From Candidatus Terrybacteria bacterium RIFCSPHIGHO2_01_FULL_43_35 (GTDB lineage: Bacteria; Patescibacteriota; Minisyncoccia; Terrybacterales; GWB1-40-14), in NCBI GenBank assembly GCA_001822815.1, contig MHSR01000013.1, positions 85,093 to 149,092 of the forward strand: a stretch of DNA of 64,000 nt, given 5' to 3'. Each line of letters starts with the position of its first letter. Positions within the stretch are counted from its first letter, which is position 1. Below, piece after piece: positions 22,864-54,022 of this stretch. Below the pieces are notes generated by a model, which was not told the origin of the DNA, ran no database searches, and was given only the letters and a program-made list of their open reading frames with translations. Both the position numbers and the translations under genes were made by a program.

Positions 22864-22897
22864 GCCCAGCCCCAATTTTTAAAAAATGGGGCTGGGC
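22864..22897 (+). terminator. Terminator hairpin GCCCAGCCCCA-N-TGGGGCTGGGC
   Basis: Perfect 11-bp stem around an A/T loop. The same stem sequence recurs near 57062 and 57270. Confidence 0.6.
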
Positions 22898-22905
22898 AAG
22901 CGCAC

Positions 22906-25649: not shown

Positions 25650-26987
25650 ATGGATATCATCATAACTCAACCAATTTACACAACACTTATTTTTGTAGCT
25701 ATTGCTGCGGTGGGTTTTATCGCCGCCATTAAACCGGAGCGCGGTTTTACAGCGGTTATTTTTTTGACCCCGTTTTACATTCTGCGCGTAAGGAATTTAT
25801 CAATACCCACCAACGGCCTTGAGCTTTTAATTATTGCCGCAGTTATAGGCTGGGCATTTTATTGTTTACGCAACAAAAAGATGTTTTTTACTGCGGATAT
25901 AAAAATATTGGCATTAAGCGGTTTTATAATAGCTGGCGCGGTACTCTCGGCATTGGCAAGCGAGCCTGCCTTGCGTTTGCCGAGCTTAGCTATTTTCCGC
26001 GCATTTATTTTCGAGCCCATTATTTTTGCCTTGGCTCTGCAGGCGGCCATAAAACAAAAAATATTCTCAAGCTCATCAATCATTAGGGCCTATGTTTTTT
26101 CAGCCAGTTTTGTCGCTTTGCTTAGTTTGGCTGGCGCCTTGCTTAATCATTTCAACAACTCTTTATTCGAAGGATTTTTAACTTATGATGGCCGGCTCAA
26201 GGGGTTTTACCTATCCCCAAACCATCTGGCCATGTATTTGGCACCAGCAGTGCCATTGGTTATAGCACAAGCGGTAAGCCGTCTCATGTCTGCAAGGGAT
26301 CCCTCCACACGCATAAGCCGTTCCGGCAAGGGGTTCTTGACCTTAATGACACTCGCCGGCCTACCGCTCGCAGATATTTTTTTAGCAAGTATTATTTTAA
26401 GTGCTTTATTTTTAACCAAATCTTTCGGCGCTATCGCAGCCACCGCTATTGGTTTATGGTTCTTTGCCACCATCTATTTTAAAAATAGGCGTAAGTTATG
26501 GCTTGAAGTAAGCGCGGTGCTGGTTTTGCCGCTTTTGTTTTTAGTAGCAAAAGAAGCGCAGGTTCTTTTCGTGGATCCAGAGCGCTCATCTTTGGCCTCG
26601 CGTTTGATGATATGGCGTTCGGCTTTAACAATATTGCGCGATCACCATATTTTTGGAATAGGGCCAGGCAATTTCCAAGAATATTATCTGGCGTATCAAA
26701 AATATTTTTCGCCATATCTTGAATGGGCCGTCCCGCAACCGCACAATTTGCTTTTAGCTTTATGGTTGCAAACCGGCATTTTGGGCGTGATCGGCTTCGT
26801 GTGGCTTATATTTAATCGTTTTAAAAAATTAGTCAACCGGTTGAAGTCTGACCTCAACCAATCCGATAAAATAATAACCGCCGCAGTTGTTTCCGCGGTG
26901 GTTATAATACTTATGCACGGTTTGGTTGATACAACTATTTGGAAAAATGATTTGGCGACAATGTTTTTCGTACTGCTAAATTTATAA
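25650..26987 (+). CDS. Second O-antigen ligase/polymerase-like (Wzy_C) membrane protein
   Basis: PHNLLLALWLQTGILGVIGF matches the Wzy_C-type motif; multi-TM. It is a tandem paralog of the preceding gene. Confidence 0.65.
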   Translation: MDIIITQPIYTTLIFVAIAAVGFIAAIKPERGFTAVIFLTPFYILRVRNLSIPTNGLELLIIAAVIGWAFYCLRNKKMFFTADIKILALSGFIIAGAVLSALASEPALRLPSLAIFRAFIFEPIIFALALQAAIKQKIFSSSSIIRAYVFSASFVALLSLAGALLNHFNNSLFEGFLTYDGRLKGFYLSPNHLAMYLAPAVPLVIAQAVSRLMSARDPSTRISRSGKGFLTLMTLAGLPLADIFLASIILSALFLTKSFGAIAATAIGLWFFATIYFKNRRKLWLEVSAVLVLPLLFLVAKEAQVLFVDPERSSLASRLMIWRSALTILRDHHIFGIGPGNFQEYYLAYQKYFSPYLEWAVPQPHNLLLALWLQTGILGVIGFVWLIFNRFKKLVNRLKSDLNQSDKIITAAVVSAVVIILMHGLVDTTIWKNDLATMFFVLLNL

Positions 26988-26991
26988 GAAT

Positions 26992-27831
26992 TTAAGGCTG
27001 ACGGCAGAATGGCAAAACTAAGCCTTGAGCGCCGCCTTCCCATACGCAGCCAACGGCCTCACAAGCCGCCTTGCCTTGATTAGTGCAGGCGGTGCAACTG
27101 GATATAGAACAAGTGGGTGTAATTGCTCCGCCACCGCCGGAAGAAGTTCCTTGAGGAGCGCAACAATACACATCATGGAAGGCCTCTACGTATCCAGTTG
27201 TAGAATTGGTGGTATAGCTTCGTTCTATAGCGCATTCGGTGCGGATGCCACCGCATGTATTGGCGTTACATACGGAATTCGCCTCATCCACACTTACATT
27301 ATCCATAAGCTTACCGCATTCTGAACGCTGACTGGGACATTTGGCGCCATAAGCATTATCTGCTGTAGGCAGGGTTATTGTTGCAAAATTCACCAAGCTA
27401 CCATTTATGGCAGCTAAAATGATGTAGGAACTCAAAAGCAGGACCAGTCCAAGAATGGCGTTGGTTATCCTTTCCTTGGCTTCGTTTTGAGAAGTTGAAT
27501 TGCCCGCACCTGCGGCATATTGGATGCCTGCGACAACCATCATTACCAAAGCAAGGAAACCGGCAGAGCCTACGCCCAGCTTGAATACATAGACGATTAG
27601 ATCCGGAAGGCTGCCGGTGTTTGTGCCAATTGTTGGATTAAAAGAACCAATAATAGGCAAGCCAAGTCCTTTTTCAAACGGGATACCTTGGTTCGGGTCG
27701 TTTATGGTGCATATCGTGGCGGCATTGCTTGTTTGAGCAAAGTAAAAAACCGAAAAGAAAACAATTAAACCTAACATTAAAAGCGCGAATTGCGATCTAA
27801 TCCTCACATTTTTCAAGATAAATTTAACCAT
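26992..27831 (-). CDS. VirB2/TrbC-like pilin candidate with a Cys-rich C-terminal domain
   Basis: Signal peptide, then two hydrophobic helices separated by a short loop (FLALVMMVVAGIQYAAGAGN ... ILGLVLLLSSYIILAAI). The C-terminal roughly 120 aa carries more than 14 Cys. It is the last gene of the T4SS-like operon. Confidence 0.4.
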   Translation of the reverse strand: MVKFILKNVRIRSQFALLMLGLIVFFSVFYFAQTSNAATICTINDPNQGIPFEKGLGLPIIGSFNPTIGTNTGSLPDLIVYVFKLGVGSAGFLALVMMVVAGIQYAAGAGNSTSQNEAKERITNAILGLVLLLSSYIILAAINGSLVNFATITLPTADNAYGAKCPSQRSECGKLMDNVSVDEANSVCNANTCGGIRTECAIERSYTTNSTTGYVEAFHDVYCCAPQGTSSGGGGAITPTCSISSCTACTNQGKAACEAVGCVWEGGAQGLVLPFCRQP

Positions 27832-27854
27832 ATAAGTTTTATTGCAAGTTTGTA

Positions 27855-28409
27855 TTAAAAACCAAGCGCGTGGCCGATATTGGTCAAAGCATCGCCTATA
27901 AAACCGGCTACGCCGCCGACAGTCCCTACAACAAGCAGAATGATAATGATAAATGGAACAAACAGCATCATTATACCGAATACTAACCCTCCAATTATCA
28001 AAAACGGCACCAAGAAGCCTAAAGCCAGAGGATTACTTAAGAGGCGCTTAACCACGTGTCTTAAAACGAAGCCTTGCGGAGTGAATTGTTTTACGCCGGA
28101 AGTTGCGGCGTCTATTACTGCGCCAATACCCTGTTGACGCAGACTCTGTATGCGCGAGTGCCGCAGACCAGAACTTCTTTGATCTTCGTTGTCTTGAGGT
28201 GCCGTAGCCTTGGACGCAACGCGTTTGGCCACCTGCCTTAAGGCAAATCCTTGCGGAGTGAATTTTTTCACGCCCCCCGTTGCCGTATCTATAGCCTTAT
28301 TAATACCTTGCTGGCGCACGGCTTGAAGGCGCGCGCGGCGCAATTGTGCCTGGCGTTGCATTTCCACGTCTTGAGTTCCATCCATATTTAAAGCTGCTTC
28401 TTCGGCCAT
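27855..28409 (-). CDS. Membrane protein with two roughly 40-aa tandem repeats and a C-terminal double TM
   Basis: RRARLQAVRQQGINKAIDTATGGVKKFTPQGFALRQVAKR is repeated as RHSRIQSLRQQGIGAVIDAATSGVKQFTPQGFVLRHVVKR. Two TM helices follow. Confidence 0.5.
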   Translation of the reverse strand: MAEEAALNMDGTQDVEMQRQAQLRRARLQAVRQQGINKAIDTATGGVKKFTPQGFALRQVAKRVASKATAPQDNEDQRSSGLRHSRIQSLRQQGIGAVIDAATSGVKQFTPQGFVLRHVVKRLLSNPLALGFLVPFLIIGGLVFGIMMLFVPFIIIILLVVGTVGGVAGFIGDALTNIGHALGF

Positions 28410-28494
28410 ATGTACTAATTATAATATTTAAAACCTTTATAAGATATAGGACTTACACGTTTGCTTTTTTGAACGGATTAAGATAGCGATGTTT

Positions 28495-30306
28495 TTAACT
28501 GTTTGGGCTACGGCTTTGTTTTAACGCCACCAACTGCTCCGGATCCGATGTTATTATCTTATCTTCGGTATATGAAGCCACTACTTTTATGGCCACATGT
28601 TTCAAGCCGGCGAAAAACAGCCCCTCCCCCACCGCGGCTTCCAATAGAAGATATTTTTCTTCATCCGTCAGGTTAAAGGCTTGTTTTACCGCCTCAATTG
28701 TCGCGGGAGATTGTTTGAACAATATTTGCAGAGAGGAATTGGTAATTAAAGGCTGGCCGTATTTTGAATTCAGGAAATCGTTGACGTCCTGCGTTATTGT
28801 GGACAGGCCCAAGTAATATTTGCGCGCTCGCTTGGCTATGGAATAAAGGAAAGATCCGCCGTCTTCATGTTGCATTACCCACCAGGCCTCATCCACAACC
28901 AGCATGCGTTTCTTTAGAGATCCGCGCACCACGTTCCATATATGGTGCAAAATCATGTACATGGCTATAGGCCTTAAAGAATCCTCAAGATCGCGGATGT
29001 TGAAGACCACAAGATTATTGTTCAAATCGAGATTTGAAGGTTGATCAACGAACCCGGCGCTCGTGCCTTCAGTGAATTTTTTTAGCCGCGCGGCTAATTC
29101 GTCTCCGCCAACCAAACTTTCCAATACGGTAATGAAATCCTTTAAAACCGGTGGGTTAATGTTTTTAAAATCGCTCTCCGGAGTTATGTTGCGTGAGGCG
29201 TATGTTTCTTCCACTGCCGTGTCCATCAAGGCTTCTTGAGTTTCGTTTATGGTCCCAAGCATTATTCTTAGCAAGCCCGTAAGCTCAAGAAGATGCGAGC
29301 GGAAAATATCGGCTTGGGATTCGCCCTCAACAACCCGCGGCAAATCAAAGGGATTAATTTTATTCTGGCTGGTCAAAGAAATTTTAAAATAACTTCCGCC
29401 CACGGCCTCGGCTAAGCGTTCATACTCGTTTTCGGGATCAATAATAATTACGTCAACGCCCACCATAAGCGAGCGCAATATTTCTAGTTTCATGGCATAG
29501 GATTTTCCTCCGCCAGATTGGCCAAATATCACTGTATTGGCATTGGGCAGACTGAAACGATCAAAAATAACCAGAGAATTGTTATGCCGGTTAACGCCAT
29601 ACATTATCCCCTTATCCGTCGTTAAATCAAAAGAAACAAAAGGGAAAATTGTCGCCAGCGATTCAGAATCCAGGTTGTTTGTAATATTCAACCAATCCTC
29701 GTTGTAAGGGAATGCCGATTTTAAGGCCTCGCTCTGTTGAAATACGGCTGGCTTGGCATAAACCAATTTTCCTTCCAGGAGAGACCTTAAGACCGTTTCC
29801 TGTTTATCAAGCTCTTCGGGTGTTTTGCTCCACACTGTTATATAAAGCGAGAACTGAAAAAGATGACTTGAGGCTTGTTGTAATTTGTCCCTTAATTCTT
29901 CAACGTCTTCATAAGCCGTTTCCAGTATTGGATCACGCACGAGACCTTTTTCCTCTTCTATGGCTATCTGTGATTCTACCTCAGCAACTTTTTTGCGCAG
30001 TTTTTTAAGTATCATTCCGGTATCAATAGGATGTATGTGCATAGAAATATCCATGACCGCATCCATGTTTATTATCGGCGCAAACCAGTTAGTGGATAGA
30101 TACCGGGGATAGGTGAATATAAAAAACGTCCGGCAGTAGCGCTCCCCTACCTTAATAAAATTCTGACCAAATTCCAGAGCCGCTGGCGCCACCAGATCTT
30201 TTAGGGTGGTAATGCCGCGGGCAAAAACCTGACCGGCCTCGGCGAGAATGCGCTCGGTTTCTTGAGAAGACGGCGTTTTTTGTTTTTTAGAAGATAAAAT
30301 AGACAT
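28495..30306 (-). CDS. virB4: VirB4/TrbE-family T4SS ATPase, C-terminal roughly 600-aa fragment (ATPase domain)
   Basis: Walker A VIFGQSGGGKSY and Walker B VVDEAWWVM. The N-terminus (LKDLVAPAALEFGQNFIKVGERYCRTF...) continues the VirB4 fold after the N-domain encoded separately at 30701-31363. Confidence 0.85.
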   Translation of the reverse strand: MSILSSKKQKTPSSQETERILAEAGQVFARGITTLKDLVAPAALEFGQNFIKVGERYCRTFFIFTYPRYLSTNWFAPIINMDAVMDISMHIHPIDTGMILKKLRKKVAEVESQIAIEEEKGLVRDPILETAYEDVEELRDKLQQASSHLFQFSLYITVWSKTPEELDKQETVLRSLLEGKLVYAKPAVFQQSEALKSAFPYNEDWLNITNNLDSESLATIFPFVSFDLTTDKGIMYGVNRHNNSLVIFDRFSLPNANTVIFGQSGGGKSYAMKLEILRSLMVGVDVIIIDPENEYERLAEAVGGSYFKISLTSQNKINPFDLPRVVEGESQADIFRSHLLELTGLLRIMLGTINETQEALMDTAVEETYASRNITPESDFKNINPPVLKDFITVLESLVGGDELAARLKKFTEGTSAGFVDQPSNLDLNNNLVVFNIRDLEDSLRPIAMYMILHHIWNVVRGSLKKRMLVVDEAWWVMQHEDGGSFLYSIAKRARKYYLGLSTITQDVNDFLNSKYGQPLITNSSLQILFKQSPATIEAVKQAFNLTDEEKYLLLEAAVGEGLFFAGLKHVAIKVVASYTEDKIITSDPEQLVALKQSRSPNS

Positions 30307-30700
30307 TTAGCTAAAATTTCTAATTACTAATTTCTAATTGACCTAAGCAACTCTCAAGATACAAGATACAATAACCAGACAAATCACAATAATCAAAAGT
30401 TCAAATTCCAAAGCTCATCCTTCGACTCTACTCAGGATGACCCTGAACGGAAACGAATGGGTCAAATGACAATTCATGGATTCGACTTCGCTCACCATGA
30501 CCCTGAGTAGAGTCGAACGGGTCAATGCTTAAAATTCAAAGGCTTAAAACCGTTTTTGTGCCTTAGTCATTTAGGCTTGAATTGAAATTTAGATTTTGGC
30601 ATTTGGGTATTGTCTGTATCTTGGGTCTTGGTTATTCGCAACATTTTTGTCATTAGACATAGGGATTTGATTAGAAATTAAGAATTAGAAATTAGACATT
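30307..30700. mobile_element. Family-A MITE-like palindromic element (394 bp) inserted between the two halves of virB4
   Basis: Terminal inverted repeats AAATTTCTAATTACTAATTTCTAATTGACCTAAG (30314-30347) and its reverse complement at 30664-30700. Internal sub-palindromes are present (TCGACTCTACTCAGG / CCTGAGTAGAGTCGA). Related copies lie at 37451, 45858 and 56991. AT-rich, no ORF. Confidence 0.6.
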
Positions 30701-31363
30701 TTAAGCTTCTGCATTCAATGCGGCCATATCGGGTACTCCGCCAGTCTCTTCCTTCTCTGGATTATACAGGCCCCAAATTAGTTCTATTAGTTCTTCGGTG
30801 GTAAGCATGGTTGACCTAGAGCCCAAACCGCGCAAGCCTTGTTCAACAAATTCTACCCGTTGCACAAGTTGATTGCGAAACTCGTGGAATTTTGCGGCAT
30901 CTATAAAAAACTCTTTTCTGGACGCGGGCAGTAAGGTGGATTTAATACTGCCCAAGGGGCCGGTGTCTTTGGCCGCCGCGGCTTCAAGCGCAAAGGGCAC
31001 TATAACATAATAGGTTTTAGACATTATGGATACGGTTTCCACAAAAGAGCGTATGAATTCAATATATTCTTGGGTTTGGATCTTTAAGAGTTCATTTTCT
31101 TGGGCGGCCTCTAACTGCGAAAGAGTTGATAAATAGCCGGATATATTTAGGCGGCGCGAATGGACAAAAATCTGTAGATTAAAGTCCAGTGAGTTTAGAA
31201 AATTCTGGAAACCGTATATTATAGCCTCCTGTTCGTCTTGAGACTTCAGGCCAAAATTGGTTGCCGAAACCATTAAAATGGCTCGCAAAGAGCCGTCTTT
31301 TAACACAATGACATCGTCGCGTATTTGTTCAAATTGTAGGAAAGATTGAGTGGAAGAAGGCAT
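30701..31363 (-). CDS. virB4: VirB4 N-terminal domain encoded as a separate ORF
   Basis: FEQIRDDVIVLKDGSLRAILMVSATNFGLKSQDEQEAIIYGFQNFLNSLDFNLQIFVHSRR aligns position by position with the N-domain of A. tumefaciens VirB4 (...DHIVLLEDGSIMSIARIDGVAFELEEIEMRN...). 220 + 603 aa approximates one full-length VirB4. Confidence 0.7.
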   Translation of the reverse strand: MPSSTQSFLQFEQIRDDVIVLKDGSLRAILMVSATNFGLKSQDEQEAIIYGFQNFLNSLDFNLQIFVHSRRLNISGYLSTLSQLEAAQENELLKIQTQEYIEFIRSFVETVSIMSKTYYVIVPFALEAAAAKDTGPLGSIKSTLLPASRKEFFIDAAKFHEFRNQLVQRVEFVEQGLRGLGSRSTMLTTEELIELIWGLYNPEKEETGGVPDMAALNAEA

Positions 31364-31395
31364 ATGCCGTCGTTGCCCGCGAGCTCGCTCGCGGT

Positions 31396-31453
31396 TGCAA
31401 CGACGTGCATCCTAAGGAGCGAAGCGACGAGGGACTACCTTAATAAAAAATTC
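31396..31453 (-). repeat. 58-bp leader repeat, copy 1 (upstream of the VirB4-N gene)
   Basis: TGCAACGACGTGCATCCTAAGGAGCGAAGCGACGAGGGACTACCTTAATAAAAAATTC, versus copy 2 at 31926-31983 with 6 mismatches. An adjacent 38-bp hairpin (31368-31405) reaches to 5 nt from the start codon. Confidence 0.6.
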
Positions 31454-31479
31454 AAGTTTTTAGTTTTAATTTTAAAATT

Positions 31480-31899
31480 TTAGGATTTACGTACTTGAGT
31501 ATCTACATCTAGCGCCGTGGCCAACTCCTTTATTTTCTGCACGGTGAGTCCTTCGCCGCCAGCCCGCCTAGATGCGTCAAAAGGAGACTTTTTGTGTTCA
31601 CGTATCTTTATTCGCGGATTTTCTTTGTGCCATATATAGTTTTTTGGATTTACGGCAAATTTCAGCGCGGCAAATAAAAAAGTTCCGAAAGACCGCTCGT
31701 TGATTTTCACGAAAGCGAAGCAAACGCCAGCAACGACGCAAAAGAAAGCCAGCATTTTCCCAACAGGATTTTTTAACAAAACAAATAACAAAGCGGCAGA
31801 AATACCGGCCGTGCCCAAATCAATAGCCTGCCATAATGTCAGACCAGCCACAACCTTATCCTGCACGTCAATAAATTTTGGAACTTTAGCTTGCGCCAT
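31480..31899 (-). CDS. VirB3/PrgI-like small two-TM protein
   Basis: 139 aa with an N-terminal KVPKFIDVQDKVVAGLTLWQAI motif, then two TM helices. Sits directly upstream of virB4 (canonical VirB3-VirB4 order). Confidence 0.5.
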   Translation of the reverse strand: MAQAKVPKFIDVQDKVVAGLTLWQAIDLGTAGISAALLFVLLKNPVGKMLAFFCVVAGVCFAFVKINERSFGTFLFAALKFAVNPKNYIWHKENPRIKIREHKKSPFDASRRAGGEGLTVQKIKELATALDVDTQVRKS

Positions 31900-31925
31900 G
31901 GTTGCTCCCGAGCAACGCGAGGGAA

Positions 31926-31983
31926 TGCAACCATGTGCATCCCGAGGAGCGAAGCGACGAGGGACTACCTTAATAAAAAATTC
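31926..31983 (-). repeat. 58-bp leader repeat, copy 2 (upstream of the VirB3-like gene)
   Basis: TGCAACCATGTGCATCCCGAGGAGCGAAGCGACGAGGGACTACCTTAATAAAAAATTC. A CATGGTTGC...GCAACCATG hairpin (31897-31935) includes the start codon. Confidence 0.6.
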
Positions 31984-32651
31984 TATAAGCTCGGCTTGTT
32001 GCCCACATCTTTCAGATTAACCGTATTACCTTCTAACTGCGGTCCGGAGTTGTCAATTTGGGGAGGCGCGGGGGGCGTTAGAGTAACGTGCGGCACATCG
32101 GGCTGTGGAGAATAAAAGCTTTTTGTTGGGGGCGGTGCGCCGCTTATTTGTTCCGTGGGCGGCGATGATGGCTTCGTGTAAAGAGCGTCTATTGATGCGT
32201 TTGGCATTGGCGGCAACGGCACACCCGCAGGCCGTGTTGATGGTGGTGGGAGCGGAGGCGACACTGGCGCGGGTTTTGTTTGTTGGGTCCGCGCCTCAAC
32301 CGATGTTTTTTGAACTGACGACGCGCCTGACGAAGTTATGCCATATAAAGAGATCAACTCTGATTTTACCGGTTGGAAAACCGCGGACGATATCTCTAAA
32401 GCCAAGGCTTTAGCCATTTCAATATTAAGATGTTCGGTTTCAACTATATTTCTTACCAAAAGATTTGGATGCAGTTCGCCAAGTAATACCATGCCCACAA
32501 GTCCGGAATATACGTAAACACGTTCTTCAACACCATGCCTTTGACACGCCGCGTAAATATCGTCGCCGGTTTTTGGAGCAAGCAAAATATCTTTGACCCG
32601 TTTGGGCAAGCGATGATATAACAATTGAAATGATGTGGTTGAAGTTTCCAT
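31983..32651 (-). CDS. Hypothetical protein with a globular N-domain and a proline-rich tail
   Basis: The C-terminal half is PAPVSPPLPPPSTRPAGVPLPPMP...PPAPPQ low complexity. No recognizable domain. Confidence 0.5.
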   Translation of the reverse strand: METSTTSFQLLYHRLPKRVKDILLAPKTGDDIYAACQRHGVEERVYVYSGLVGMVLLGELHPNLLVRNIVETEHLNIEMAKALALEISSAVFQPVKSELISLYGITSSGASSVQKTSVEARTQQTKPAPVSPPLPPPSTRPAGVPLPPMPNASIDALYTKPSSPPTEQISGAPPPTKSFYSPQPDVPHVTLTPPAPPQIDNSGPQLEGNTVNLKDVGNKPSL

Positions 32652-32656
32652 AATTT

Positions 32657-34702
32657 TTATTTATTCTCTTCTTCCTGCCGTTTTGTCAGTCTTTCTAAAT
32701 GGTCAGCGGCCTCATTCGGCGTTCTGAGCTGTTTTACGGGTCCAGCTTTTACGGCCTCAACTATTCTGCCGCCAACTTTATTGAGTTGCGACTGCAATAA
32801 TTGCGTATCAAAACCGGCTCCGGCTATGGCGGGATTCCTAACTAGATAGTCAAATGTTGGCGCATTGGCTTTGTAGGCTCTGGCCAGGTATTCCTCGTTC
32901 TCTGAAAGCTTTTTTATGGCAGCGATTAGTTGTGGTGTAGCATGTCCTGCATCCACCATTTGGCCGATTCCATTGCCAGTTATTCTGGTCATTAACACCT
33001 CAGCAAATTCAGAAGCCCCAGTGATATTACCGGCTGCGTCTTTTTCAATGAGCGCATTTCCTGGGATTTGCCTTGCGTTAGCAGGAGCGGCCAGGTTATA
33101 ACTGCCAGGACGAGCCTCCATCATCTTTTCATAGGCGACCATGCGACTCTTTTTATCTGTGGTATCAACTCCATAAAACGGACTTGTTCTATCCTTACTT
33201 AAGAGTTCTAAAGCCAAAGCTGGGTTTGCCCCCACAATAGAGCCTTCTTTTCCAATCTTCCTCAGATAACCGAACGAATTCGTAAAGTCGTCACCCCTTA
33301 AGGGTCTTTTTTCGGCTAAGGCAATTAAGGCACCGGCTTTTTCGCGTCGGTCCGTCATACTGCTTAAGCGATTCTCGATACTCTGAACAGCGCGAGGTCC
33401 AAGAGAAGCCTCTTTTCTGTATTTTTCCGCATGTTCTCCCACGGCCGCTTCATCGGCTCGCATGCCGCCGCGCAATGGAGCAGAAATCGCTCCTCCAAAA
33501 ACCGGGATGCGCTCAATGCGTCCAGCGACGCCAGACCTTAGGCCATAAGTTCTATCCTTAATTTCTCTTCCCACTCCCCTACGCACAGCTCTTGCGCCGG
33601 CAATGGTCGGAGCGGCTACGAGGCCCGTGACCAAGCCTGCGGCAACTCCTCCGGCTTGGCCAGACATCTTTTTTGAAATAGCCATGCCTTGCGATAAGAA
33701 AATAAAGACCGTGATAAACTGCAATATATTTTTACCCACAAGCAGAAGCGGAGTTATGGCTTCATTGGTTAGGGTGTAATTGGTTGCGGCAACAAATATT
33801 TTGGTGTCGGGATCGTTCAGATAAGATACCAGCCATGTTGTAAGCCAAATAAAGAACGTGCCGAATACGCCAAACAGTGACCAGGTAATCAATTGATTCA
33901 TCCAATCTTGGAAGAAGCCCTTAGTTCTAGGCAGGACAAGTGAGATCATGGCTAAGGGCGAAACTATAAGAATGGTCCACAAGATGACAATGCGCATCAC
34001 AAAAAGTATGGCCAAAAACAATAGCAGGAAAAAGGTTGCGGCCGCAAATACTATTGAGAACATCAGGTTTGCTACTTTCAGCCAAGTGCCGGGTATCTGC
34101 GCCCCGGAAGGCGTATTTATTTGTAAATCCCCTACCCGCAAAGCGCTGGCCAATACCTCGCCGATGTTCTTGTTGGTGCCAAAGCCGTTGGCAATGAAAA
34201 AGCCCATGATGACGTTAGCGAAGTTTATAACCATCGCGCCCAAAAACAAACTGAAGTTTACCAATATGGCGGCTATCAGGAACTGCGGCATCAGCTTCCT
34301 TAAATTATAGTCCGGAAGACCAAGTATAGTGCCGAAAGCGATCACAACCAAAATAAACGCAAAAAACATGTTCACTAAATCTCTAACCACGCCCCAGCCA
34401 GTGCGCACCATGTCGTTGTCAAAGTAGCCCATGTAGCGGTTAACATCTACAACCACGAAAGTTAGCAGAGCGCCCGCAAGTGTTACAAACCAAATAAATA
34501 TTTCCAATATTAATCCTAAAATGAAAGCGATTATCTGGCCTATTAAATCGCAAAGGTCAACGCCGATAGGGCCTACGCCAATAAAACATTGGGCAGAAGC
34601 CGCTTGAGGGGCCAAAACACCGCCGGCAATAACCAAAATCAACAACATTACTGCCATTTTGCCCCTATTAAATTTTATTTTTTTAAATGACGTTGAGTGC
34701 AT
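32657..34702 (-). CDS. VirB6/TrbL-like polytopic membrane protein with a large C-terminal soluble domain
   Basis: Signal/TM, then at least six TM helices over about 350 aa, then a roughly 300-aa hydrophilic domain. Position relative to VirB3/VirB4 fits VirB6. Confidence 0.55.
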   Translation of the reverse strand: MHSTSFKKIKFNRGKMAVMLLILVIAGGVLAPQAASAQCFIGVGPIGVDLCDLIGQIIAFILGLILEIFIWFVTLAGALLTFVVVDVNRYMGYFDNDMVRTGWGVVRDLVNMFFAFILVVIAFGTILGLPDYNLRKLMPQFLIAAILVNFSLFLGAMVINFANVIMGFFIANGFGTNKNIGEVLASALRVGDLQINTPSGAQIPGTWLKVANLMFSIVFAAATFFLLLFLAILFVMRIVILWTILIVSPLAMISLVLPRTKGFFQDWMNQLITWSLFGVFGTFFIWLTTWLVSYLNDPDTKIFVAATNYTLTNEAITPLLLVGKNILQFITVFIFLSQGMAISKKMSGQAGGVAAGLVTGLVAAPTIAGARAVRRGVGREIKDRTYGLRSGVAGRIERIPVFGGAISAPLRGGMRADEAAVGEHAEKYRKEASLGPRAVQSIENRLSSMTDRREKAGALIALAEKRPLRGDDFTNSFGYLRKIGKEGSIVGANPALALELLSKDRTSPFYGVDTTDKKSRMVAYEKMMEARPGSYNLAAPANARQIPGNALIEKDAAGNITGASEFAEVLMTRITGNGIGQMVDAGHATPQLIAAIKKLSENEEYLARAYKANAPTFDYLVRNPAIAGAGFDTQLLQSQLNKVGGRIVEAVKAGPVKQLRTPNEAADHLERLTKRQEEENK

Positions 34703-34706
34703 ATTT

Positions 34707-36623
34707 TTATCGACAGGCGCTTATATCAAAAGGATTAAAGATGCCTGTATCGGTAGCCTTTTGGATCATCCAAATTTTAATCACACATTGCCAGTCGGAA
34801 ATATTTGGATAATAAGTACTCGGATTGTTTATATCGTATCTTTTCGACTCATATAGTTCCAAAACTCTGTCAAACCAATCATTGGTAGAGAAATCCACAC
34901 CAATTTTGGGGTCGCCCAAATTATCATAAACATCTCTTCTCGGCCTGGTTGGAGCAAAATAATTGTAATCTTGAAGTTTATAATTATAACCCAGAGAAAC
35001 GGTCGGACTATCATCTTCAAAGGGAGCCGGCAGACCAGATCCGACACGATCTTCAACCGGGGCGGTACTTGCGGCGTCTGGCGAAATTAATCGTTGATCT
35101 GGAGCAGAACGGAATTTAGCACTCGGTTTTAACCATGCGTCTATTAGTGTGCAGAAATTTGTTCCGTCAGGGTTGGTGTTGCAAACACCCCGCGTGTTAT
35201 TTGCATTAGCGGGATTGGTTTCGCCGCTATTGCTGGCAACTCGATATCTGTCCAAGATTGTTTTTGGTGTGCCTTGTGGTTCGGCTTGAGGATCCAAATA
35301 AACAAAACCCTGTCCAGCCAGATCAAATTGCGCCTGTGTGGCCGCCTGCATTTTTTGCAGCAAAATTACCGCCGGAGAAATAACATACTCTGTATTCATA
35401 GCAAAGGAATTTGTATTCCAAAAGAACAGTCCAGGATCAACAGATCCTTGAGTGTCTGTGACGTAGAGATATTCTGGACGGAGTCCCTGTCCGGCAAGAT
35501 ACTCCAATTGCCGTACTTGTTTGGCTTCGTTTACAATTCTGTCTATCTGCGTCTTTGCTCCTTCACGCACGCTTTCCAAAGAATTTGCCGGCAGGGTCAT
35601 TTTTTGTAGCTCTTCAAAGCGGACGTCGTTTCTATTTACCAAGCTTTTATCAAGCGTCGGCAAGTTCATTAGCTGGCGTATAAGGATTTGTCCTTGTGCA
35701 GAGTTTATGTCTATGTCGTGGAGCTCTACATCCTTGGTCGCTGTTTCGATATTTTCTCCGCGAGTTATTTCAAATACGCGTTCGCAAATTGGCTTGACAC
35801 GATTAAAATTTTGGTCATCAAAAAGGCCGGCTATAAAAGGATCTTCGTTTTCTATTCCACTGCCATATTGATACCAATGACCATAGTGGTTCAATACGCC
35901 CAGTTCCTTTTTAAGATTTCTTAAATTTTCTATGCTTTCTGATGTTGAGTAAGGATTCTTTACTGCATAAGTACTTTTAGGATCGGCGCCATTGTTGCCA
36001 AACAAAAAGTCTTGTTGATCCCATATCAAATAGTTTATGTAGCAAGCCGCAAAAGCCCGCCCCCTGTTTACCGGCTCACCAAAAATGAACTCAAACGGAT
36101 CGTGTATTATTCGAGGCCCTTTTAGCGGTGATATCGTGGGGGCCGCGCCATTGCTTCCTGCGCCCTCGGCACCAGCAAGTTTTTTATCGGCAATGTCATA
36201 AGCCAAACCAAAATCTTGCAATTCCTTTAGCGACTCTTGATAAAGTTTGTTCACGTCTTCGCGCGCTTTCTCAATTTTGGTTAGCTCAAAAGAAGCGGTA
36301 AAGTCTTCTTGGCGGTTGGCCAAGGTATTAAAAAGGTCGGCCATGAAACTTTCAAGGCTTGTTTCAAATTTTGTTCCGGCATCCTGATTTACCACGTAAA
36401 CTGGAACAGCGGCGAGAGCAGGTCCCACACTTTCAAAAATAAAAATAAATATAAGCGTGGATAAGCCAAAAACACGCGTCAGGCGCGCAAGAATTTTATG
36501 GACTGCAGATTTTTTCATGGGAACTGATTGGCGCGCAGAAATATTTTTCTGCGCGGCTCTGGAAATAAAAATTAAATTTATTTCTGCGAGACAGAGCAGC
36601 GGAGAAAAATTTGCCACCAACAT
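34707..36623 (-). CDS. Large secreted or surface protein of the T4SS-like operon, no recognizable domain
   Basis: A signal peptide begins at the internal Met (MKKSAVHK..., about 36518). Several Cys near the C-terminus. Confidence 0.5.
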   Translation of the reverse strand: MLVANFSPLLCLAEINLIFISRAAQKNISARQSVPMKKSAVHKILARLTRVFGLSTLIFIFIFESVGPALAAVPVYVVNQDAGTKFETSLESFMADLFNTLANRQEDFTASFELTKIEKAREDVNKLYQESLKELQDFGLAYDIADKKLAGAEGAGSNGAAPTISPLKGPRIIHDPFEFIFGEPVNRGRAFAACYINYLIWDQQDFLFGNNGADPKSTYAVKNPYSTSESIENLRNLKKELGVLNHYGHWYQYGSGIENEDPFIAGLFDDQNFNRVKPICERVFEITRGENIETATKDVELHDIDINSAQGQILIRQLMNLPTLDKSLVNRNDVRFEELQKMTLPANSLESVREGAKTQIDRIVNEAKQVRQLEYLAGQGLRPEYLYVTDTQGSVDPGLFFWNTNSFAMNTEYVISPAVILLQKMQAATQAQFDLAGQGFVYLDPQAEPQGTPKTILDRYRVASNSGETNPANANNTRGVCNTNPDGTNFCTLIDAWLKPSAKFRSAPDQRLISPDAASTAPVEDRVGSGLPAPFEDDSPTVSLGYNYKLQDYNYFAPTRPRRDVYDNLGDPKIGVDFSTNDWFDRVLELYESKRYDINNPSTYYPNISDWQCVIKIWMIQKATDTGIFNPFDISACR

Positions 36624-36631
36624 CCAAGATT

Positions 36632-37399
36632 TTACGGAAGAACATCCGGTGGCAGATAGAAATTATACGTGTTTTCAAGGTTCTTGATTTCCGCAATGAT
36701 ACCCTCGGATTCCACGGCTATTTTTGAGTGTTCACCAGAATTCCATAAATTCAGCACATCTTCTGAATTTGAACCGGCGATATTTTTTAAGAACAAAATA
36801 TATTGCTTAATAAGCGCGAGGCTGTGTTCGTGAACTGCGGCGGCCTGCGAAGGAGGCGTTATGGCGCGGAGGGCTTGCAGTTGTCTTTCGTATTCGGAGA
36901 TAACTTCATTTAACGCCTCTTTTTGGCCCTTGGCCGCAAGGGCCAACGCTATTTTTATGGTGTCGGGATTATTGCCGCCAAAATCTATGGCCGAAGAGGC
37001 AACGAAGTATTCATAAAGTGAGCGAGCCGGTTCAGTTTTAGGTATCGGACTTTGAGTTTGCGGTTCCTGGTCGCCGGTTTGGGCCGTACCGTTCAGTATA
37101 GCGTCATCACTTTTGTTTAGGGCGTCCAGAAGGCCAGCCATAAAAGGTCTATATGTTCCCGGTATCGTGTTTTGTGGGTGCGTAGCGTTTTGGTTTGGCG
37201 CGTCAAACACCGATGTCAAAAAACTTGAAATAGACAAACCACCTTTCGGCTTCATTATAACACCGCTAGGATTTTTTGCTGATGTGGATAAGTGGCTTAT
37301 GGGAAAACTATTTCCAAAAGCAAAAAATCCCGCAAGCAACGGGATAGTTATAACCAGCAGGAGCTTGAGAAACCGATATAAAAAGACGCCTTTTAGCAT
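36632..37399 (-). CDS. Secreted/anchored protein, paralog 1 of a three-gene tandem family
   Basis: N-terminal TM. The C-domain (ALALAAKGQKEALNEVISEYERQLQAL...) resembles the C-domains of the proteins at 37644 and 38792. Confidence 0.5.
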   Translation of the reverse strand: MLKGVFLYRFLKLLLVITIPLLAGFFAFGNSFPISHLSTSAKNPSGVIMKPKGGLSISSFLTSVFDAPNQNATHPQNTIPGTYRPFMAGLLDALNKSDDAILNGTAQTGDQEPQTQSPIPKTEPARSLYEYFVASSAIDFGGNNPDTIKIALALAAKGQKEALNEVISEYERQLQALRAITPPSQAAAVHEHSLALIKQYILFLKNIAGSNSEDVLNLWNSGEHSKIAVESEGIIAEIKNLENTYNFYLPPDVLP

Positions 37400-37450
37400 A
37401 TTAAGTACTTAGCGAAAAGCGTAAAGCGCAAAACGTAAAATGCGGTTTCA

Positions 37451-37581
37451 AATTGACCTAATTACTCTAATTGATCTAAACAACGTCTAATGCCAAAATT
37501 TCTAAACGCGCATTTTGGTCATTGGTGCTTGGATATTGGGGCTTGCTTAGGTCAATTAGAAATTAGAATAATTAGAAATTT
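37451..37581. repeat. Family-A short palindromic element (TIRs only)
   Basis: AATTGACCTAATTACTCTAATTGATC ... GCTTAGGTCAATTAGAAATTAGAATAATTAGAAATTT. The right arm is the reverse complement of the left TIR at 30314-30350. Confidence 0.5.
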
Positions 37582-37643
37582 ACAGCGGTTTTTAACTTTA
37601 CACTGTTATTTTACGTCTTTCGCTTTAAATTTTACATTTATTG

Positions 37644-38579
37644 TCATGGCGCCGGCTGTTGTTCTCCGCTGGTTGGGGGGTTTTGAACTGCTGGTGGATT
37701 ATATTTTTCCTCCAGGCCTAAACGTATTCTTTCCAAAGCATAACCTTGTTGGACCAAGTCCCCTCCCCAGCGCACGTCACGCATAAGTTTTACCGGATCG
37801 GTATTAATTTCATACAGGTCGGCGAAAAGCTCCCGCAGACCTTTGAACAAACCAAGATAGCCCTTTTGGAGATCAACGGCTTCCTTGGGCGTCTGCAGGT
37901 TGCGGATATGTTGTTCGGTTTCGTTTATGCCGGCCAACACTTTTTCTACCACGTCCGCTTTTTGTTCCTGCACCACGCTTTGGGCAATGTCAAAATAAGA
38001 CGCAGTTTCGGCAGGAAGCTGGATAGTTGAAAATTCTTTAAGGTAATTTTTTACCGCGTCGGTACCATCGGCCGCGGATATATTTATGTCGCGGTCGGAT
38101 ATTTCAGGCAGGATAAAAGCATCCATCTTTTTTTCAGTCAAGAATTTTTCTATCTGTTTTTCGTCAAGCCGCGGATCATTGTCTCCGGTTTTGGTCTGGA
38201 GCCAGGAAAAATATTGGACAGTTAAGTTAGAGGCAAGTTTTGTATTTTCATCGACGCGCGCACGGCCAGACAGTGTGGGGTCATAACCATTTTTAACCTC
38301 ATCACCATCTTTGTATCTGTCGCCGTCGGTGTCTGGATTATTGGGATTCGTTCCGTAAATTAATTCCTTGGCGTCGGATAAGCCATCGCCATCTTCATCG
38401 TGTAAAAAAGAAGCCGCCGAACCAATGGCCGGCTGGTTTACGGGCGAGTTTGAAAATATGGAGGCTTTGAGATTGCGCACAAAATTGCCGTGCCAAAAAG
38501 CCGAGCCGCCATATATGGCCAAGCCCAACATTAAGAGATAAAAACCAGGTTTTATTAATTTACGAAAAAAGCGGCGCAT
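37644..38579 (-). CDS. Secreted protein, paralog 2, with DxDGDG calcium-binding-type (thrombospondin type-3-like) repeats
   Basis: HDEDGDGLSDAKELIYGTNPNNPDTDGDRYKDGDEVKNGYDP, with an N-terminal TM. Confidence 0.6.
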   Translation of the reverse strand: MRRFFRKLIKPGFYLLMLGLAIYGGSAFWHGNFVRNLKASIFSNSPVNQPAIGSAASFLHDEDGDGLSDAKELIYGTNPNNPDTDGDRYKDGDEVKNGYDPTLSGRARVDENTKLASNLTVQYFSWLQTKTGDNDPRLDEKQIEKFLTEKKMDAFILPEISDRDINISAADGTDAVKNYLKEFSTIQLPAETASYFDIAQSVVQEQKADVVEKVLAGINETEQHIRNLQTPKEAVDLQKGYLGLFKGLRELFADLYEINTDPVKLMRDVRWGGDLVQQGYALERIRLGLEEKYNPPAVQNPPTSGEQQPAP

Positions 38580-45857: not shown

Positions 45858-46058
45858 AGCATAAATTAAAAAGTAAAATGCTAATTGAAAATTTAAGAAA
45901 CAATTACCAAGAAACAAGATACAGACAATTTCCAATATTCAATAACCAATAATCAACTTTATGTTTGAATTTTGGAATTTGGGTATTGTAATTTGTCTGG
46001 TTATTGTTTCTTGTGTCTTGGTTATTATGACTTTTAATATTTAATTTTTGATCTGCGC
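45858..46058. repeat. Family-A-related palindromic element (inner arms)
   Basis: CAAGAAACAAGATACAGACAA...AATAACCAATAATCAA / TTTGGGTATTGT...TGTCTGGTTATTGTTTCTTG. Shares inner-arm words with 30350-30420 and 30570-30640. Confidence 0.45.
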
Positions 46059-51973: not shown

Positions 51974-53032
51974 ATGATTAACCGCGGCCCCATAAGCGAA
52001 TTAAAAAAACAGTTTCTTGAATATATAGAAGTAGAAAAAGGCCGTTCAGCCAAAACCGTAGAGAATTATGACCATTATTTGGAGCGGTTTTTCACTTGGC
52101 TTGTTGAAAATGTGAAGCCCCGTACCGAACGAAGTTCTGGTACTGGGGTTTCACGTGAAACCCCGTTAGAGGTCTCGCCCGCGCTTGCGCGCCCGCGAGA
52201 GTCTGCGGGGCGGGCCGCCTCTAACGAGGTGGAACCCCCTGTAGAAAAGCCTACTCTTTCAGATCTAACAGAAGAAAAGGTTAGAGCGTTTCGTGTGTGG
52301 CTCAACCGGAAATCGTTATCCAAACAGACACAGAATTATCACGTAATCGCACTGCGCATGTTCCTTAAGTTTCTTGCCCATAAAGGCATTGATGCTTTGT
52401 CCGCGGAACGTTTGGAGCTTGCTAAAACAGGCGCAAGGGAGGTTGATTTTCTTGAAGGTGAGGATTTGGAACGCATGCTTAGTGCGCCAAAAGGCAATGA
52501 TTTGCGCGCGTTGCGCGACCGAGCGATATTAGAAACCCTTTTCTCCACCGGCATGCGTGTTTCAGAGCTATGCGCCTTGGACATAGATCACATCAATATT
52601 GAAAAAGGAGAATTTGCTGTACGCGGGAAGGGCGATAAAATTAGGCCGGTTTTTCTATCGTATCACAGCAGAGAAACAATAAGGGATTACATGAACGCCC
52701 GCGCCGTAATAGTGGAAAAAGCCTTGTTTGTAAGGGTACCTCGTGGTAAGAATTCATTAAATAATGGTAATAATTTTACGCGCTTGACACCAAGATCGGT
52801 TCAGCGGTTGGTTCAACACTACGCGCAAAAAGCCGGCATAGTTGGTAAACACGTAAGCCCGCACACATTAAGACACTCTTTTGCCACCGATCTTTTGAGA
52901 AACGGCGCCGATTTGCGTTCGGTACAAGAAATGTTGGGACATTCTTCCATAACGACTACGCAAATATATACGCACGTCACAAACCCACAGCTAAAAAAAG
53001 TGCACGAAAAGTTCCACAAAGATCCTGAATAG
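51974..53032 (+). CDS. xerC: Tyrosine recombinase XerC/XerD family, with a roughly 40-aa repeat-derived insertion in the N-terminal core-binding domain
   Basis: C-terminal catalytic RHSFATDLLRNGADLRSVQEMLGHSSITTTQIYTHV. The N-domain is interrupted by a GC-rich segment encoding ...GTGVSRETPLEVSPALARPRESAGRAASNEVEPP... Confidence 0.85.
   Translation: MINRGPISELKKQFLEYIEVEKGRSAKTVENYDHYLERFFTWLVENVKPRTERSSGTGVSRETPLEVSPALARPRESAGRAASNEVEPPVEKPTLSDLTEEKVRAFRVWLNRKSLSKQTQNYHVIALRMFLKFLAHKGIDALSAERLELAKTGAREVDFLEGEDLERMLSAPKGNDLRALRDRAILETLFSTGMRVSELCALDIDHINIEKGEFAVRGKGDKIRPVFLSYHSRETIRDYMNARAVIVEKALFVRVPRGKNSLNNGNNFTRLTPRSVQRLVQHYAQKAGIVGKHVSPHTLRHSFATDLLRNGADLRSVQEMLGHSSITTTQIYTHVTNPQLKKVHEKFHKDPE
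52146..52230. repeat. Family-B GC-rich palindromic element inserted in-frame within xerC
   Basis: GGTTTCACGTGAAACCCCGTTAGAGG-(GC-rich core)-CCTCTAACGAGG. The first 45 bp are near-identical to 53783-53827. GC content is sharply higher than in flanking coding DNA. Confidence 0.55.
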
Positions 53033-53107
53033 AACAAGTAATTAAGATGTGTTCTACTAACCCGTAAGCAAAAAATGTTTCACGTGAAACATAAGCACTC
53101 TATATTA

Positions 53108-53128
53108 TAGTAAAACCCCGCAAGCTAT
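53108..53128. terminator. Bidirectional terminator hairpin CCCCGCAagctatgTGCGGGG between xerC and the Nudix gene
   Basis: 7-bp GC stem with a T-run on the minus strand (downstream of the Nudix stop). Confidence 0.5.
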
Positions 53129-53142
53129 GTGCGGGGTAATTC

Positions 53143-53718
53143 TTAAAGGCCTTGCTCAAGGAACATTTTGGCTCTTACGTAGGCGACAAAGAGATCGCTT
53201 TTGTACACTGGGTACATCCTACTGTCTTCTTTGGCCGCTATCCGAGCCTCTTTTCCGCTCTCGTATAGAGCGACTATTTCCTCTACCGGTACTACAACAG
53301 CTTGTTCTACCGGAACAGGATCGAAGTCCTTATCGCGCGAGTGGTCAACCCAGCCGCTTTGGTTTGTGGCCTTTGCGTCTCTGCCGTTGTAATAGATCTT
53401 GGCGTGGTTATCGCCAGAAAGTATTACGTGGAGCAGATCTCGATCTTCTACTGTGATAGCTAAGCCGGTTTCGTGGCCAACTTCGCGAATGGCTCCTTCA
53501 GTCGGCAATTCATTGTCGTGCATTTTGCCGCCCGGCAGGCCAAAACCACGACGTTTTGTGCCCACGAATTGGCCAGTGCTTGCAGAGATGATCGGCTCTT
53601 CCTGGTTGAGAACAAAAACGATTCCTGGTTCCTTGATCTTCTTCAAGAGTATAACCGTTTTCACGGTTATTTCGTAGCCAGAGCGCACCAGATTTTCTGC
53701 TTGCGCCTGAAGACTCAC
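53143..53718 (-). CDS. NUDIX hydrolase
   Basis: Nudix box GKMHDNELPTEGAIREVGHETGL (GX5EX7REUXEEXGU). Confidence 0.8.
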   Translation of the reverse strand: MSLQAQAENLVRSGYEITVKTVILLKKIKEPGIVFVLNQEEPIISASTGQFVGTKRRGFGLPGGKMHDNELPTEGAIREVGHETGLAITVEDRDLLHVILSGDNHAKIYYNGRDAKATNQSGWVDHSRDKDFDPVPVEQAVVVPVEEIVALYESGKEARIAAKEDSRMYPVYKSDLFVAYVRAKMFLEQGL

Positions 53719-53782
53719 AGCGTTCTCCTTTAAGTTTGAGGAACGATATTCATACTATAGCACATCTCTTACAAAAAAGCAA

Positions 53783-53930
53783 GGTTTCACGTGAAACCCC
53801 GTTAGAAATCTCGCCCGCACTTGCCCCGTTAGAGGCCCTCTTTTGGGAGGCAGTCACCCTTGACGATTTGCCTCTAACGGGGCTTGCGCGCCAGCGAGGA
53901 CCTTTGGGGCAGGCTGTTTCTAACGGAGTG
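53783..53930. repeat. Family-B nested palindromic element
   Basis: GGTTTCACGTGAAACCCCGTTAGAAATCTCGCCCGC ... CCCCGTTAGAGG-36 bp-CCTCTAACGGGG ... TTTCTAACGGAG. The 104-aa ORF called across it (53736-54050) is probably spurious. Confidence 0.5.
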
Positions 53931-54022
53931 AGACCATATCGTTTCCACCTTTCGCTTAATGACTTTACAACAAAATATAAAATGCTATGCTATACAAAAA
54001 TTAAAGAAGGAGGCACCTTAAA

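Follow-up and report, generated by a model that had tools for sequence, protein, structure and literature searches.

Several families of fold-back sequence have been described between bacterial genes. The REP/BIME and REPIN elements of proteobacteria can alter the mRNA stability and the translation of flanking cistrons, and the RNA hairpins of the Correia (NEMIS) elements of Neisseria and the ERIC/IRU elements of enterobacteria are RNase III substrates or alter the expression of adjacent genes. The stems of 23S rRNA intervening sequences (IVS) and the intercistronic hairpins of phage T7 are RNase III substrates as well, and a two-turn helix with small internal loops is the classic shape of such a substrate. 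Here we describe an element of this familiar kind in a 64,000-nucleotide stretch of DNA from Candidatus Terrybacteria bacterium RIFCSPHIGHO2_01_FULL_43_35 (contig MHSR01000013.1, positions 85,093 to 149,092; hereafter the window, in whose coordinates positions are given). The element is restricted to one clade of the candidate phyla radiation (CPR) and stands twice in a type IV secretion system (T4SS) gene cluster, once before the PrgI/VirB3-like gene and once before the gene for the N-terminal part of VirB4 (VirB4-N). In its manner of working it would come nearest to the transcribed fold-back repeats (REP/BIME, Correia, ERIC) and to intercistronic hairpins that cover a start site or are cut by RNase III. 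It fits no named family, except that the smaller of its two hairpins belongs among the GAGCGAAG-loop hairpins described below. We read the repeat as a clade-specific, bipartite fold-back leader, present in two copies, whose role is either to occlude translation starts or to serve as a processing site, and give this reading a probability of about 0.45.

The original prediction, made from the letters of the window, reported two nearly identical 58-bp segments ahead of these genes with hairpins close to both start codons, and in both respects it was right. The segments (31396-31453 and 31926-31983) agree at 54 of 58 positions (93%), their 38-nt core has two exact occurrences in the window and none in 100 shuffled sequences, and folding of both regions returns hairpins where they had been placed. 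Read on the coding (minus) strand, the blocks run from 31983 to 31926 and from 31453 to 31396, and each copy consists in order of a T/A-rich head, a weak hairpin 1 (-5 to -7 kcal/mol), the sequence TGCAC and a large hairpin 2 of 47 nt with 19-20 bp (Table 1). The prediction had a hairpin following each block; on the minus strand, where the genes lie, the 58-nt block itself already includes the 5' arm of hairpin 2. The PrgI ATG (31899-31897) is located within the 3' arm of hairpin 2 of copy 2, and the VirB4-N ATG (31363-31361) follows directly 3' of hairpin 2 of copy 1, which ends in GCAT. Both large hairpins have the same length (31410-31364 and 31940-31894), their apices differ by substitution, and two compensatory changes separate the outer stems (ATGGTTGC/GCAACCAT versus GTCGTTGC/GCAACGAC). 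Copy 1 is thus not copy 2 with a GC-rich palindrome inserted, as had been proposed; its apex is a separate subtype. The repeat is not an assembly artefact, because independent assemblies carry the same locus: PrgI and the same gene spacing recur in 10 places from independent ENA, NCBI and JGI assemblies, and L100, L102, L103 and L104 (related loci are cited by number) show no base difference from L101 over 650 nt.

The initiation regions of both genes are predicted to be unusually structured. The copy 1 region folds at -38.2 kcal/mol (z -3.26, 0 of 200 shuffles) and the copy 2 region at -30.9 kcal/mol (z -1.77, 8 of 200 shuffles). When positions -60 to +12 were folded for all 52 large open reading frames (ORFs) of the window, VirB4-N ranked first (-34.5 kcal/mol) and PrgI third (-28.8 kcal/mol), with a median of about -11, and the pairing probability over -15 to +6 was greatest in these two starts (0.80 and 0.84). 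By these computed folds, the element makes the PrgI and VirB4-N initiation regions among the most structured of the genome. A Shine-Dalgarno (SD)-like motif (GGAG, GAGG, AGGA or AAGG at -18 to -4) precedes only one of the 52 genes, and this sole match is the GGGAG that lies in hairpin 2 of copy 2. The genome is therefore essentially SD-less, and the organism makes no use of SD sequences. Boxes resembling -10 elements (TAnnnT) end 2-12 nt before the start codon in about 14 of the 52 genes, for example tgaTATACTaaacaatATG at 48511, and their closeness to the ATG suggests that leaderless mRNAs are probably common in this genome. Since the genome is SD-less and its starts are probably often leaderless, a stable helix on the start codon is a strong departure from its usual AT-rich, open starts. 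The second most structured start is that of the gene at 22906, where a perfect 11-bp hairpin (GCCCAGCCCCA-N12-TGGGGCTGGGC, 22866-22900) with no U-tract after it ends 5 nt before the ATG.

The original prediction looked to covariation across homologous loci to bear out a structured control module, and compensatory changes are indeed found in hairpin 2. A structure alignment of six sequences from five lineages gave 19 pairs in RNAalifold, 5 of them with double compensatory changes. With the structure held fixed, 94.7% of the cells are paired versus 84.7% in shuffles, 12 cells have changed on both sides versus 4.2 expected, and the covariation score is 0.347 versus 0.140, a value that none of 500 shuffles reached; sliding the register lowers the paired cells to 26-47%. 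The alignment contains the invariant blocks GGATGCAC, TTGCA, a bulged A and GGCAT, and the element helices fold at -18 to -33 kcal/mol. Among the orthologous PrgI leaders the hairpin-2 region is 61-70% identical, and the PrgI coding DNA is 60-65% identical with third codon positions at 34-43%, near saturation. Because hairpin 2 is as conserved as coding DNA whose third positions agree at only 34-43%, purifying selection acts on both its sequence and its structure, and hairpin 2 is the selected unit. A covariance model (R1) found only the two known copies in the 64-kb window with its filters off, and in about 1.5 Mb of other loci it recovered no members other than those already known.

Close relatives of the locus were found through their VirB4-N and PrgI homologues. 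A leader precedes PrgI in L005, L001-L004, L074, L084 and L093. In L005 (VirB4-N 79% identical), the L001-L004 lineage (75%) and its variant L074 the leader is single and stands before PrgI only, with PrgI and VirB4-N 2-3 nt apart. A neighbor-joining tree of PrgI and VirB4-N has the topology (L002,(window,(L005,(L095,L006)))); on this tree it is simplest to suppose that the ancestor of the clade already had the PrgI leader and that the L095/L006 branch lost it. Comparison of these loci suggests that hairpin 2 has been kept at the junction of PrgI with the upstream gene (geneA) since the common ancestor of a Terrybacteria-related clade, with compensatory substitutions; copy 1, before VirB4-N, is specific to the window lineage. 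Of the conservation that the original prediction expected upstream of orthologous genes, the part that stands is hairpin 2, present before PrgI in L005 and in L002/L074; the 58-bp block as such is not conserved, its T-rich head and expanded hairpin 1 being lineage-specific. The L005 head has 16 of 25 positions in common with that of the window, read by eye. Beyond this clade, the leader was not found in relatives at or below 59% identity (51 GTDB genomes and L058-L063), which have lineage-specific word-repeat hairpins of their own instead, and a scan of genome contigs with VirB4-N yielded relatives of no more than 50% identity, none with the leader. In L059, which belongs to the former set, three leaders resembling one another and built on TCGCGAAT/ATTCGCGA words stand before PrgI, VirB4-N and VirB4-C, so that duplicated leaders before consecutive T4SS genes recur with unrelated sequences.

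Other inserts occupy these junctions as well. A second dispersed, AT-rich inverted-repeat element (..AACCAAGA.CAAGATACAGACAAT...ATTGTTTCTTGTATCTTG..) is found in the window at 30582-30636 and 45958-46026, in L006 at 637-740, as a 102-nt insert between PrgI and VirB4-N, and in L095 at 2807-3000; it thus lies at differing T4SS junctions in differing relatives and at an unrelated intergenic site of the window. Selfish-looking small genes flanked by inverted word repeats stand between PrgI and VirB4-N in three further loci, encoding a 23S_rRNA_IVP protein (PF05635; L020 5509-5986, L099 470-918) or a PDDEXK_3 protein (PF13366; L059 2477-3000).

The element also occurs outside the T4SS. A metagenome scan with a 36-bit pattern gave 31 matches, about the number that we estimate to arise by chance; four are genuine (L065, L074, L084 and L093), three of them belonging to the L002 lineage and the fourth being L065. 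The L065 contig derives from a more distant relative and is syntenic with window positions 57.5-60.5 kb, and its element, ATCC[TTCGACTTCGCTCA]GGAT-GCAC-hairpin 2-GGCATG, is preceded by an intrinsic terminator and immediately followed by a nucleotidyltransferase gene (PF00483). On this placement, the module is not specific to T4SS genes. Before all three unrelated genes the element has the same orientation, its 3' base 0-7 nt from the ATG, which falls inside the 3' arm of hairpin 2 (copy 2, L005), right after it (copy 1, L002, L074) or in a 2-nt overlap with it (L065). In L065 an upstream ORF of 26 codons (MLVKSFDFAQDARGCNRSRSSQATTA, 6548-6628) spans the whole leader and overlaps the nucleotidyltransferase start in ATGA, with no equivalent in the window copies. 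A scan of viral sequences with the same pattern gave one match, L110, which, from its equal length, we take to be the same contig as the chance match L068.

Hairpin 2 falls into two subtypes, A (copy 2, L005, L002) and B (copy 1, L065), the L065 hairpin being 87% identical to that of copy 1 and 75% to that of copy 2, and the two window copies 68% identical to each other. Copy 1 is a mosaic, a subtype-B hairpin whose 5' 38-58 nt are nearly identical to copy 2, and this argues for gene conversion between family members and not for a simple tandem duplication. The original prediction had offered a recent duplication with palindrome invasion. Its first half survives in part, in that the exact 38-nt tract points to a recent copy or to gene conversion; palindrome invasion does not, given the equal lengths and an apex far closer to L065 than to copy 2.

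Hairpin 1 has a different affinity. Its loop is the reverse complement of GAGCGAAGCGA, which reads on the plus strand in both copies; L005 has a minimal form, ATCCC-GCTTCGC-GGGAT, and L065 the canonical TGAGCGAAGTCGAA. The exact 17-mer CTGAGCGAAGTCGAAGG has 111 matches in IMG/VR, where it caps unrelated, covarying stems in very diverse genomes. Hairpin 1 therefore belongs to a very widespread GAGCGAAG(Y)CGA-loop hairpin family, of which we found no description in Rfam or in the literature searched. In full-text searches of the literature, the literal DNA motifs and their typical spurious translations matched nothing but irrelevant primers. At the IMG/VR loci L111-L190 the family often lies just before a start codon or at the tip of terminator-like stems. 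The stem of hairpin 1 has decayed in copy 1 and in L002, and it is therefore not the selected part of the leader.

Taken together as a mechanism, the preferred reading would run as follows. When the T4SS operon is transcribed, hairpin 2 would fold in the mRNA and bury the start codon and about 45 nt before it. Translation of PrgI and VirB4-N would be uncoupled from that of the upstream cistron; in relatives the genes are 2-5 nt apart. Translation would then be throttled, or would depend on the opening or cutting of the stem, the most plausible route being RNase III-type cleavage of the two-turn helix. Processing is a plausible way to open the start because this helix has small loops and because an adjacent giant stem, described below, has IVS-like flanks. 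Copy 1 would have originated when a member of the family came to the PrgI-VirB4-N junction in the window lineage, and gene conversion would later have made its 5' 38-58 nt uniform with those of copy 2. Hairpin 1 would be a decaying passenger from the widespread intergenic hairpin family.

Several observations weigh against this interpretation. L006 (VirB4-N 77% identical) has a 2-nt gap in place of the leader, so the element is dispensable; the leader is missing in L095 too, and L095-L098 have the AT-rich inverted-repeat element before PrgI. At the orthologous PrgI-VirB4-N junction of relatives there is no element, only 2-3 nt. The antisense strands fold as stably as the sense strands or more so in six of six sequences (-23.0 versus -19.1 kcal/mol in L002, -29.6 versus -19.4 kcal/mol in L074), and for a hairpin so symmetric between strands, antisense folding fits a function at the level of DNA or of an antisense transcript at least as well. 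Simple occlusion leaves the invariant blocks unexplained, and the comparison draws on only five independent lineages.

A serious rival, which we consider less likely than the leader, holds that the repeat is selfish or neutral, an intergenic palindrome comparable to REP/REPIN, MITE or PATE elements. Its hairpin would be selected only in single-stranded DNA for its own propagation, it would merely be put up with where a stop codon meets a start codon, and its effects on expression would be incidental. The variable presence of the element among close relatives, its occupation of a new junction in the window lineage and the mosaic copy 1, with a 5' half like copy 2 and an apex 87% identical to L065, are what such a repeat would leave behind, and its neighbourhood is of the same character: nearby junctions hold other palindromic inserts (the AT-rich inverted repeats of L006, L095 and window 30582-30636 and 45958-46026) and, in L020, L099 and L059, the IVP or PDDEXK_3 gene inserts with their inverted word repeats. 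The hairpin-1 loop reads GCGAAGC on the antisense strand, d(GCGAAGC) being an unusually stable DNA mini-hairpin, and the loop family has its 111 exact 17-mer matches in IMG/VR; antisense folds at least as stable as the sense folds likewise suit a DNA hairpin. Against this stand a low copy number in the sequence covered, two in 64 kb and one per related contig, and the failure to find a Y1 transposase, another transposase or RAYT among about 28 ORFs scanned with Pfam. No target-site duplication is visible by eye: filled and empty junctions (window versus L005/L002/L006) show at most an ambiguous repeated AT, and neither hairpin is a terminal inverted repeat of the other. Strict orientation and docking on the ATG in three of three gene contexts, and retention at one locus over a divergence at which third positions are near saturation, likewise weigh against it.

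On a further account the element is an RNase III-type, IVS-like processing site, at which the helix is cut in the polycistronic mRNA so that the cistrons are separated, protective hairpin ends are left and the start codon is freed. It is a mechanistic sub-variant of the occluding or processing leader, and taken separately we judge it improbable. The 19-20 bp stem with its small symmetric internal loops and conserved bulges is favorable to it, and so is the neighbouring 394-nt spacer that separates VirB4-N from the VirB4 ATPase gene. This spacer is predicted to form one nested giant hairpin (Table 1) whose stem base, set 12 nt behind the stop codon and 15 nt ahead of the following ATG, brings stop and start codons together; no ORF lies inside. 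The outer arms consist of TTTCTAAT/ATTAGAAA word repeats resembling the flanks of the 23S_rRNA_IVP insert of L099. In the L002 lineage, however, the sense stem is poor (-19 kcal/mol, with two mismatches). The spacer represents the same phenomenon as the leaders with a different element. It contains two further pairs of GAGCGAAGTCGA-type hairpins and a copy of the AT-rich inverted-repeat element, and all four further occurrences of the GAGCGAAGCGA-type motif in the window fall within it. Tandem hairpin units within it (30415-30530) show GG/CC stem swaps. A BLASTN search of copy 2 and of the hairpins at 30410-30535 against 72,556 plasmids gave no match.

A more ambitious variant, for which we see an equally small chance, holds that hairpin 2 is a trans-recognised translational gate of a new class for SD-less CPR bacteria, one that would be defined by an invariant GGAUGCAC box, a bulged A, an AW bulge and a GGCAU foot that docks on the AUG. 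Opening or cutting of the gate by a conserved protein, either one that binds RNA or a nuclease, would license initiation, possibly through the creation of a leaderless 5'-AUG mRNA.

We regard a regulated switch as less probable again. A thermosensor, or an attenuator responsive to a ligand, a protein or the ribosome, would work through GGATGCA-N6-TGCA(W)(T)CC, an alternative pairing in competition both with hairpin 1 and with the 5' arm of hairpin 2. An alternative helix of 7-8 bp is possible in six of six sequences (perfect in L005, read by eye) and would account for the invariance of GGATGCAC, TTGCA and CC; in copy 2 the fold with this helix is nearly isoenergetic (-30.0 versus -30.9 kcal/mol), and in L065 the upstream ORF spans the element to end in ATGA on the gene start. 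All positions of the alternative helix are invariant, however, and so display no covariation; hairpin 2 is much stabler than it in copy 1, L065 and L005; and there is no conserved leader peptide, no SD sequence to unmask and no Rfam match. A thermodynamic switch controlled by hairpin 1 was accordingly rejected as a general mechanism, hairpin 2 being far stabler than the competing helix in most copies. Two of the specific forms that the original prediction had named fare no better: a thermosensor is unlikely in an SD-less genome with hairpins this stable (-18 to -33 kcal/mol), and an attenuator lacks a U-tract after the hairpins on either strand.

A DNA operator or promoter cassette, with the palindrome as a binding site for a protein or with a -10 element supplied by the T/A-rich head, is very improbable: invariant TGCA-containing boxes lie one helical turn apart (read by eye) just downstream of an AT-rich head, but the head has no A2/T6 -10 hexamer, a consensus scan found no promoter in the element with regional counts equal to chance, and covariation that is nested in several layers over 47 nt typically marks a nucleic-acid hairpin and not a dimer operator.

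Other known classes were considered and set aside. Rfam 15 at the gathering threshold yielded only four tRNAs in the whole window, and a permissive search of 30200-32100 (E at most 10) only chance miRNA and snoRNA matches, none on the element. A terminator scan of 26500-38000 listed none at 31364-31453 or 31893-31983; neither hairpin is followed by a U-tract on either strand, the sense T-run preceding the hairpins and the antisense A-run following them. The SD-less genome rules out SD sequestration, and thermometers that melt an SD sequence (ROSE, fourU) are rejected on the single SD-like motif among 52 genes and on very stable helices without the corresponding motifs. Integron attC sites do not fit: the arms, GTTGCAW/GCAAC, depart from the core GTTRRRY, and genes in so fixed an order are not cassettes. 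A conserved leader peptide, upstream ORF or N-terminal extension of PrgI was discarded, since the frames are inconsistent and only L065 has an upstream ORF.

The gene cluster around the element (Table 1) is a chromosomal T4SS on the minus strand, in the order geneA, PrgI, VirB4-N, the 394-nt gap, VirB4 ATPase, a small gene and a T4SS pilin; the product of geneA has no Pfam match. Junctions further upstream measure 4-8 nt and are followed by three expanded junctions of 83, 116 and 394 nt. The geneA stop codon TAG occupies 31985-31983, and its G is base 1 of repeat copy 2. A separate VirB4-N gene of about 220 codons is the norm among more than 3000 homologues, and the order PrgI-VirB4N-VirB4C is constant in more than 50 genomes, often with gaps of 2-4 nt. 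A 2025 survey (PMC12102498) finds the T4SS broadly kept in the reduced genomes of Patescibacteria and PrgI essential for the epibiotic growth of one cultured member; it does not cover the intergenic structure or regulation of the T4SS.

Table 1. Parts of the repeat, genes and spacers of the T4SS cluster, in window coordinates.
Feature	Position	Strand	Remarks
geneA	31983..32651	minus	222 aa, Pro-rich C-terminus; directly upstream of the PrgI leader
Copy 2, T/A-rich head	31965..31983	minus	GAATTTTTTATTAAGGTAG; same in copy 1
Copy 2, hairpin 1	31940..31964	minus	TCCC[TCGTCGCTTCGCTCCTC]GGGA; about -6.7 kcal/mol
Copy 2, hairpin 2 (subtype A)	31893..31940	minus	ATGC-A-CATGGTTGC..TCCC..GGGA..GCAACCATG-GC; covariance model R1 70.5 bits, E 1.8e-14
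PrgI/VirB3-like gene	31480..31899	minus	139 aa, PF12666
AT-rich spacer, PrgI stop to repeat copy 1	31454..31479	minus	26 nt; no counterpart in relatives
Copy 1, T/A-rich head	31435..31453	minus	equal to copy 2 head
Copy 1, hairpin 1	31410..31434	minus	TCCC...AGGA; stem weakened, CG->TA
Copy 1, hairpin 2 (subtype B)	31364..31410	minus	ATGC-A-CGTCGTTGC-AA-CCGCGAG CGAG CTCGCGG-GCAACGACG-GCAT; R1 71.5 bits, E 1e-14; fold -33.4 kcal/mol
VirB4 N-terminal gene, TraC-like	30701..31363	minus	220 aa, PF26593
Spacer, VirB4-N to VirB4 ATPase	30307..30700	minus	394 nt; one nested giant hairpin, -114.9 kcal/mol, z -7.7
VirB4 ATPase part	28495..30306	minus	603 aa, TraG P-loop/AAA_10

Elsewhere in the window, the cumulative GC skew reaches its minimum at about 52000-54000 beside parS-like sites (GGTTTCACGTGAAACC), so the replication origin probably lies within the window near these positions. 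This is about 20 kb from the T4SS cluster and agrees with a published remark that CPR T4SS loci are often near the origin. The parS-like sites, at 52145-52236 and 53781-53935, each head a GC-rich palindromic repeat of about 90 nt. The first repeat copy falls within an ORF for a XerC/D-type tyrosine recombinase (51974-53032) whose N-terminal domain is matched as two separate stretches, which suggests an in-frame insertion.

The start-codon hairpin on PrgI and VirB4-N offers a concrete candidate for post-transcriptional control of the T4SS, and the locus is a small, clean example of palindromic inserts colonising CPR operon junctions; if the element is only a selfish repeat, its value is descriptive. 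Should hairpin 2 instead be a gate recognised in trans, it would be a cassette portable between genes and, together with the 394-nt fold-back, would point to a general way in which these reduced genomes tolerate and exploit fold-back inserts in translationally coupled operons.

One match to a part of the element is the (C)TGAGCGAAG(T)CGAA(GG)-loop hairpin family, of which we know of no earlier description. The hairpin-1 loops of both copies, L005 and L065 match it in reverse orientation, and its stems vary and covary; unlike the element, the family occurs in diverse, often high-GC genomes and phage contigs, where hairpin 2 was not found. The 23S rRNA IVS and the PF05635 and PF13366 passenger genes resemble the locus in their long fold-back inserts, which stand at the same junctions in L020, L099 and L059, and in the IVS-like flanks of the 394-nt spacer, but the element is far shorter, has no ORF and is unrelated in sequence. 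With initiation-region hairpins, such as ermC-type attenuators and phage T7 RNase III sites, it shares a stable start-codon helix between cistrons and a possible alternative pairing upstream; it differs in having neither a conserved leader peptide nor an SD sequence to sequester, and is known here from sequence and folding. The Correia and ERIC/IRU elements are transcribed intergenic fold-back repeats whose presence likewise varies between strains. They are abundant, measure 100-155 bp and have terminal inverted repeats and TA duplications, whereas the present element is bipartite, about 90 nt long, without a visible target duplication and confined to one CPR clade. REPs number tens to hundreds of copies and are mainly found 3' of genes, in association with RAYT transposases, in contrast to a low-copy element that is docked on start codons in one orientation with no RAYT seen. 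What the element has in common with REP/BIME and REPIN is that all are short palindromes outside genes in which covariation preserves a hairpin, and that all are copied within the genome and undergo mosaic or concerted evolution.

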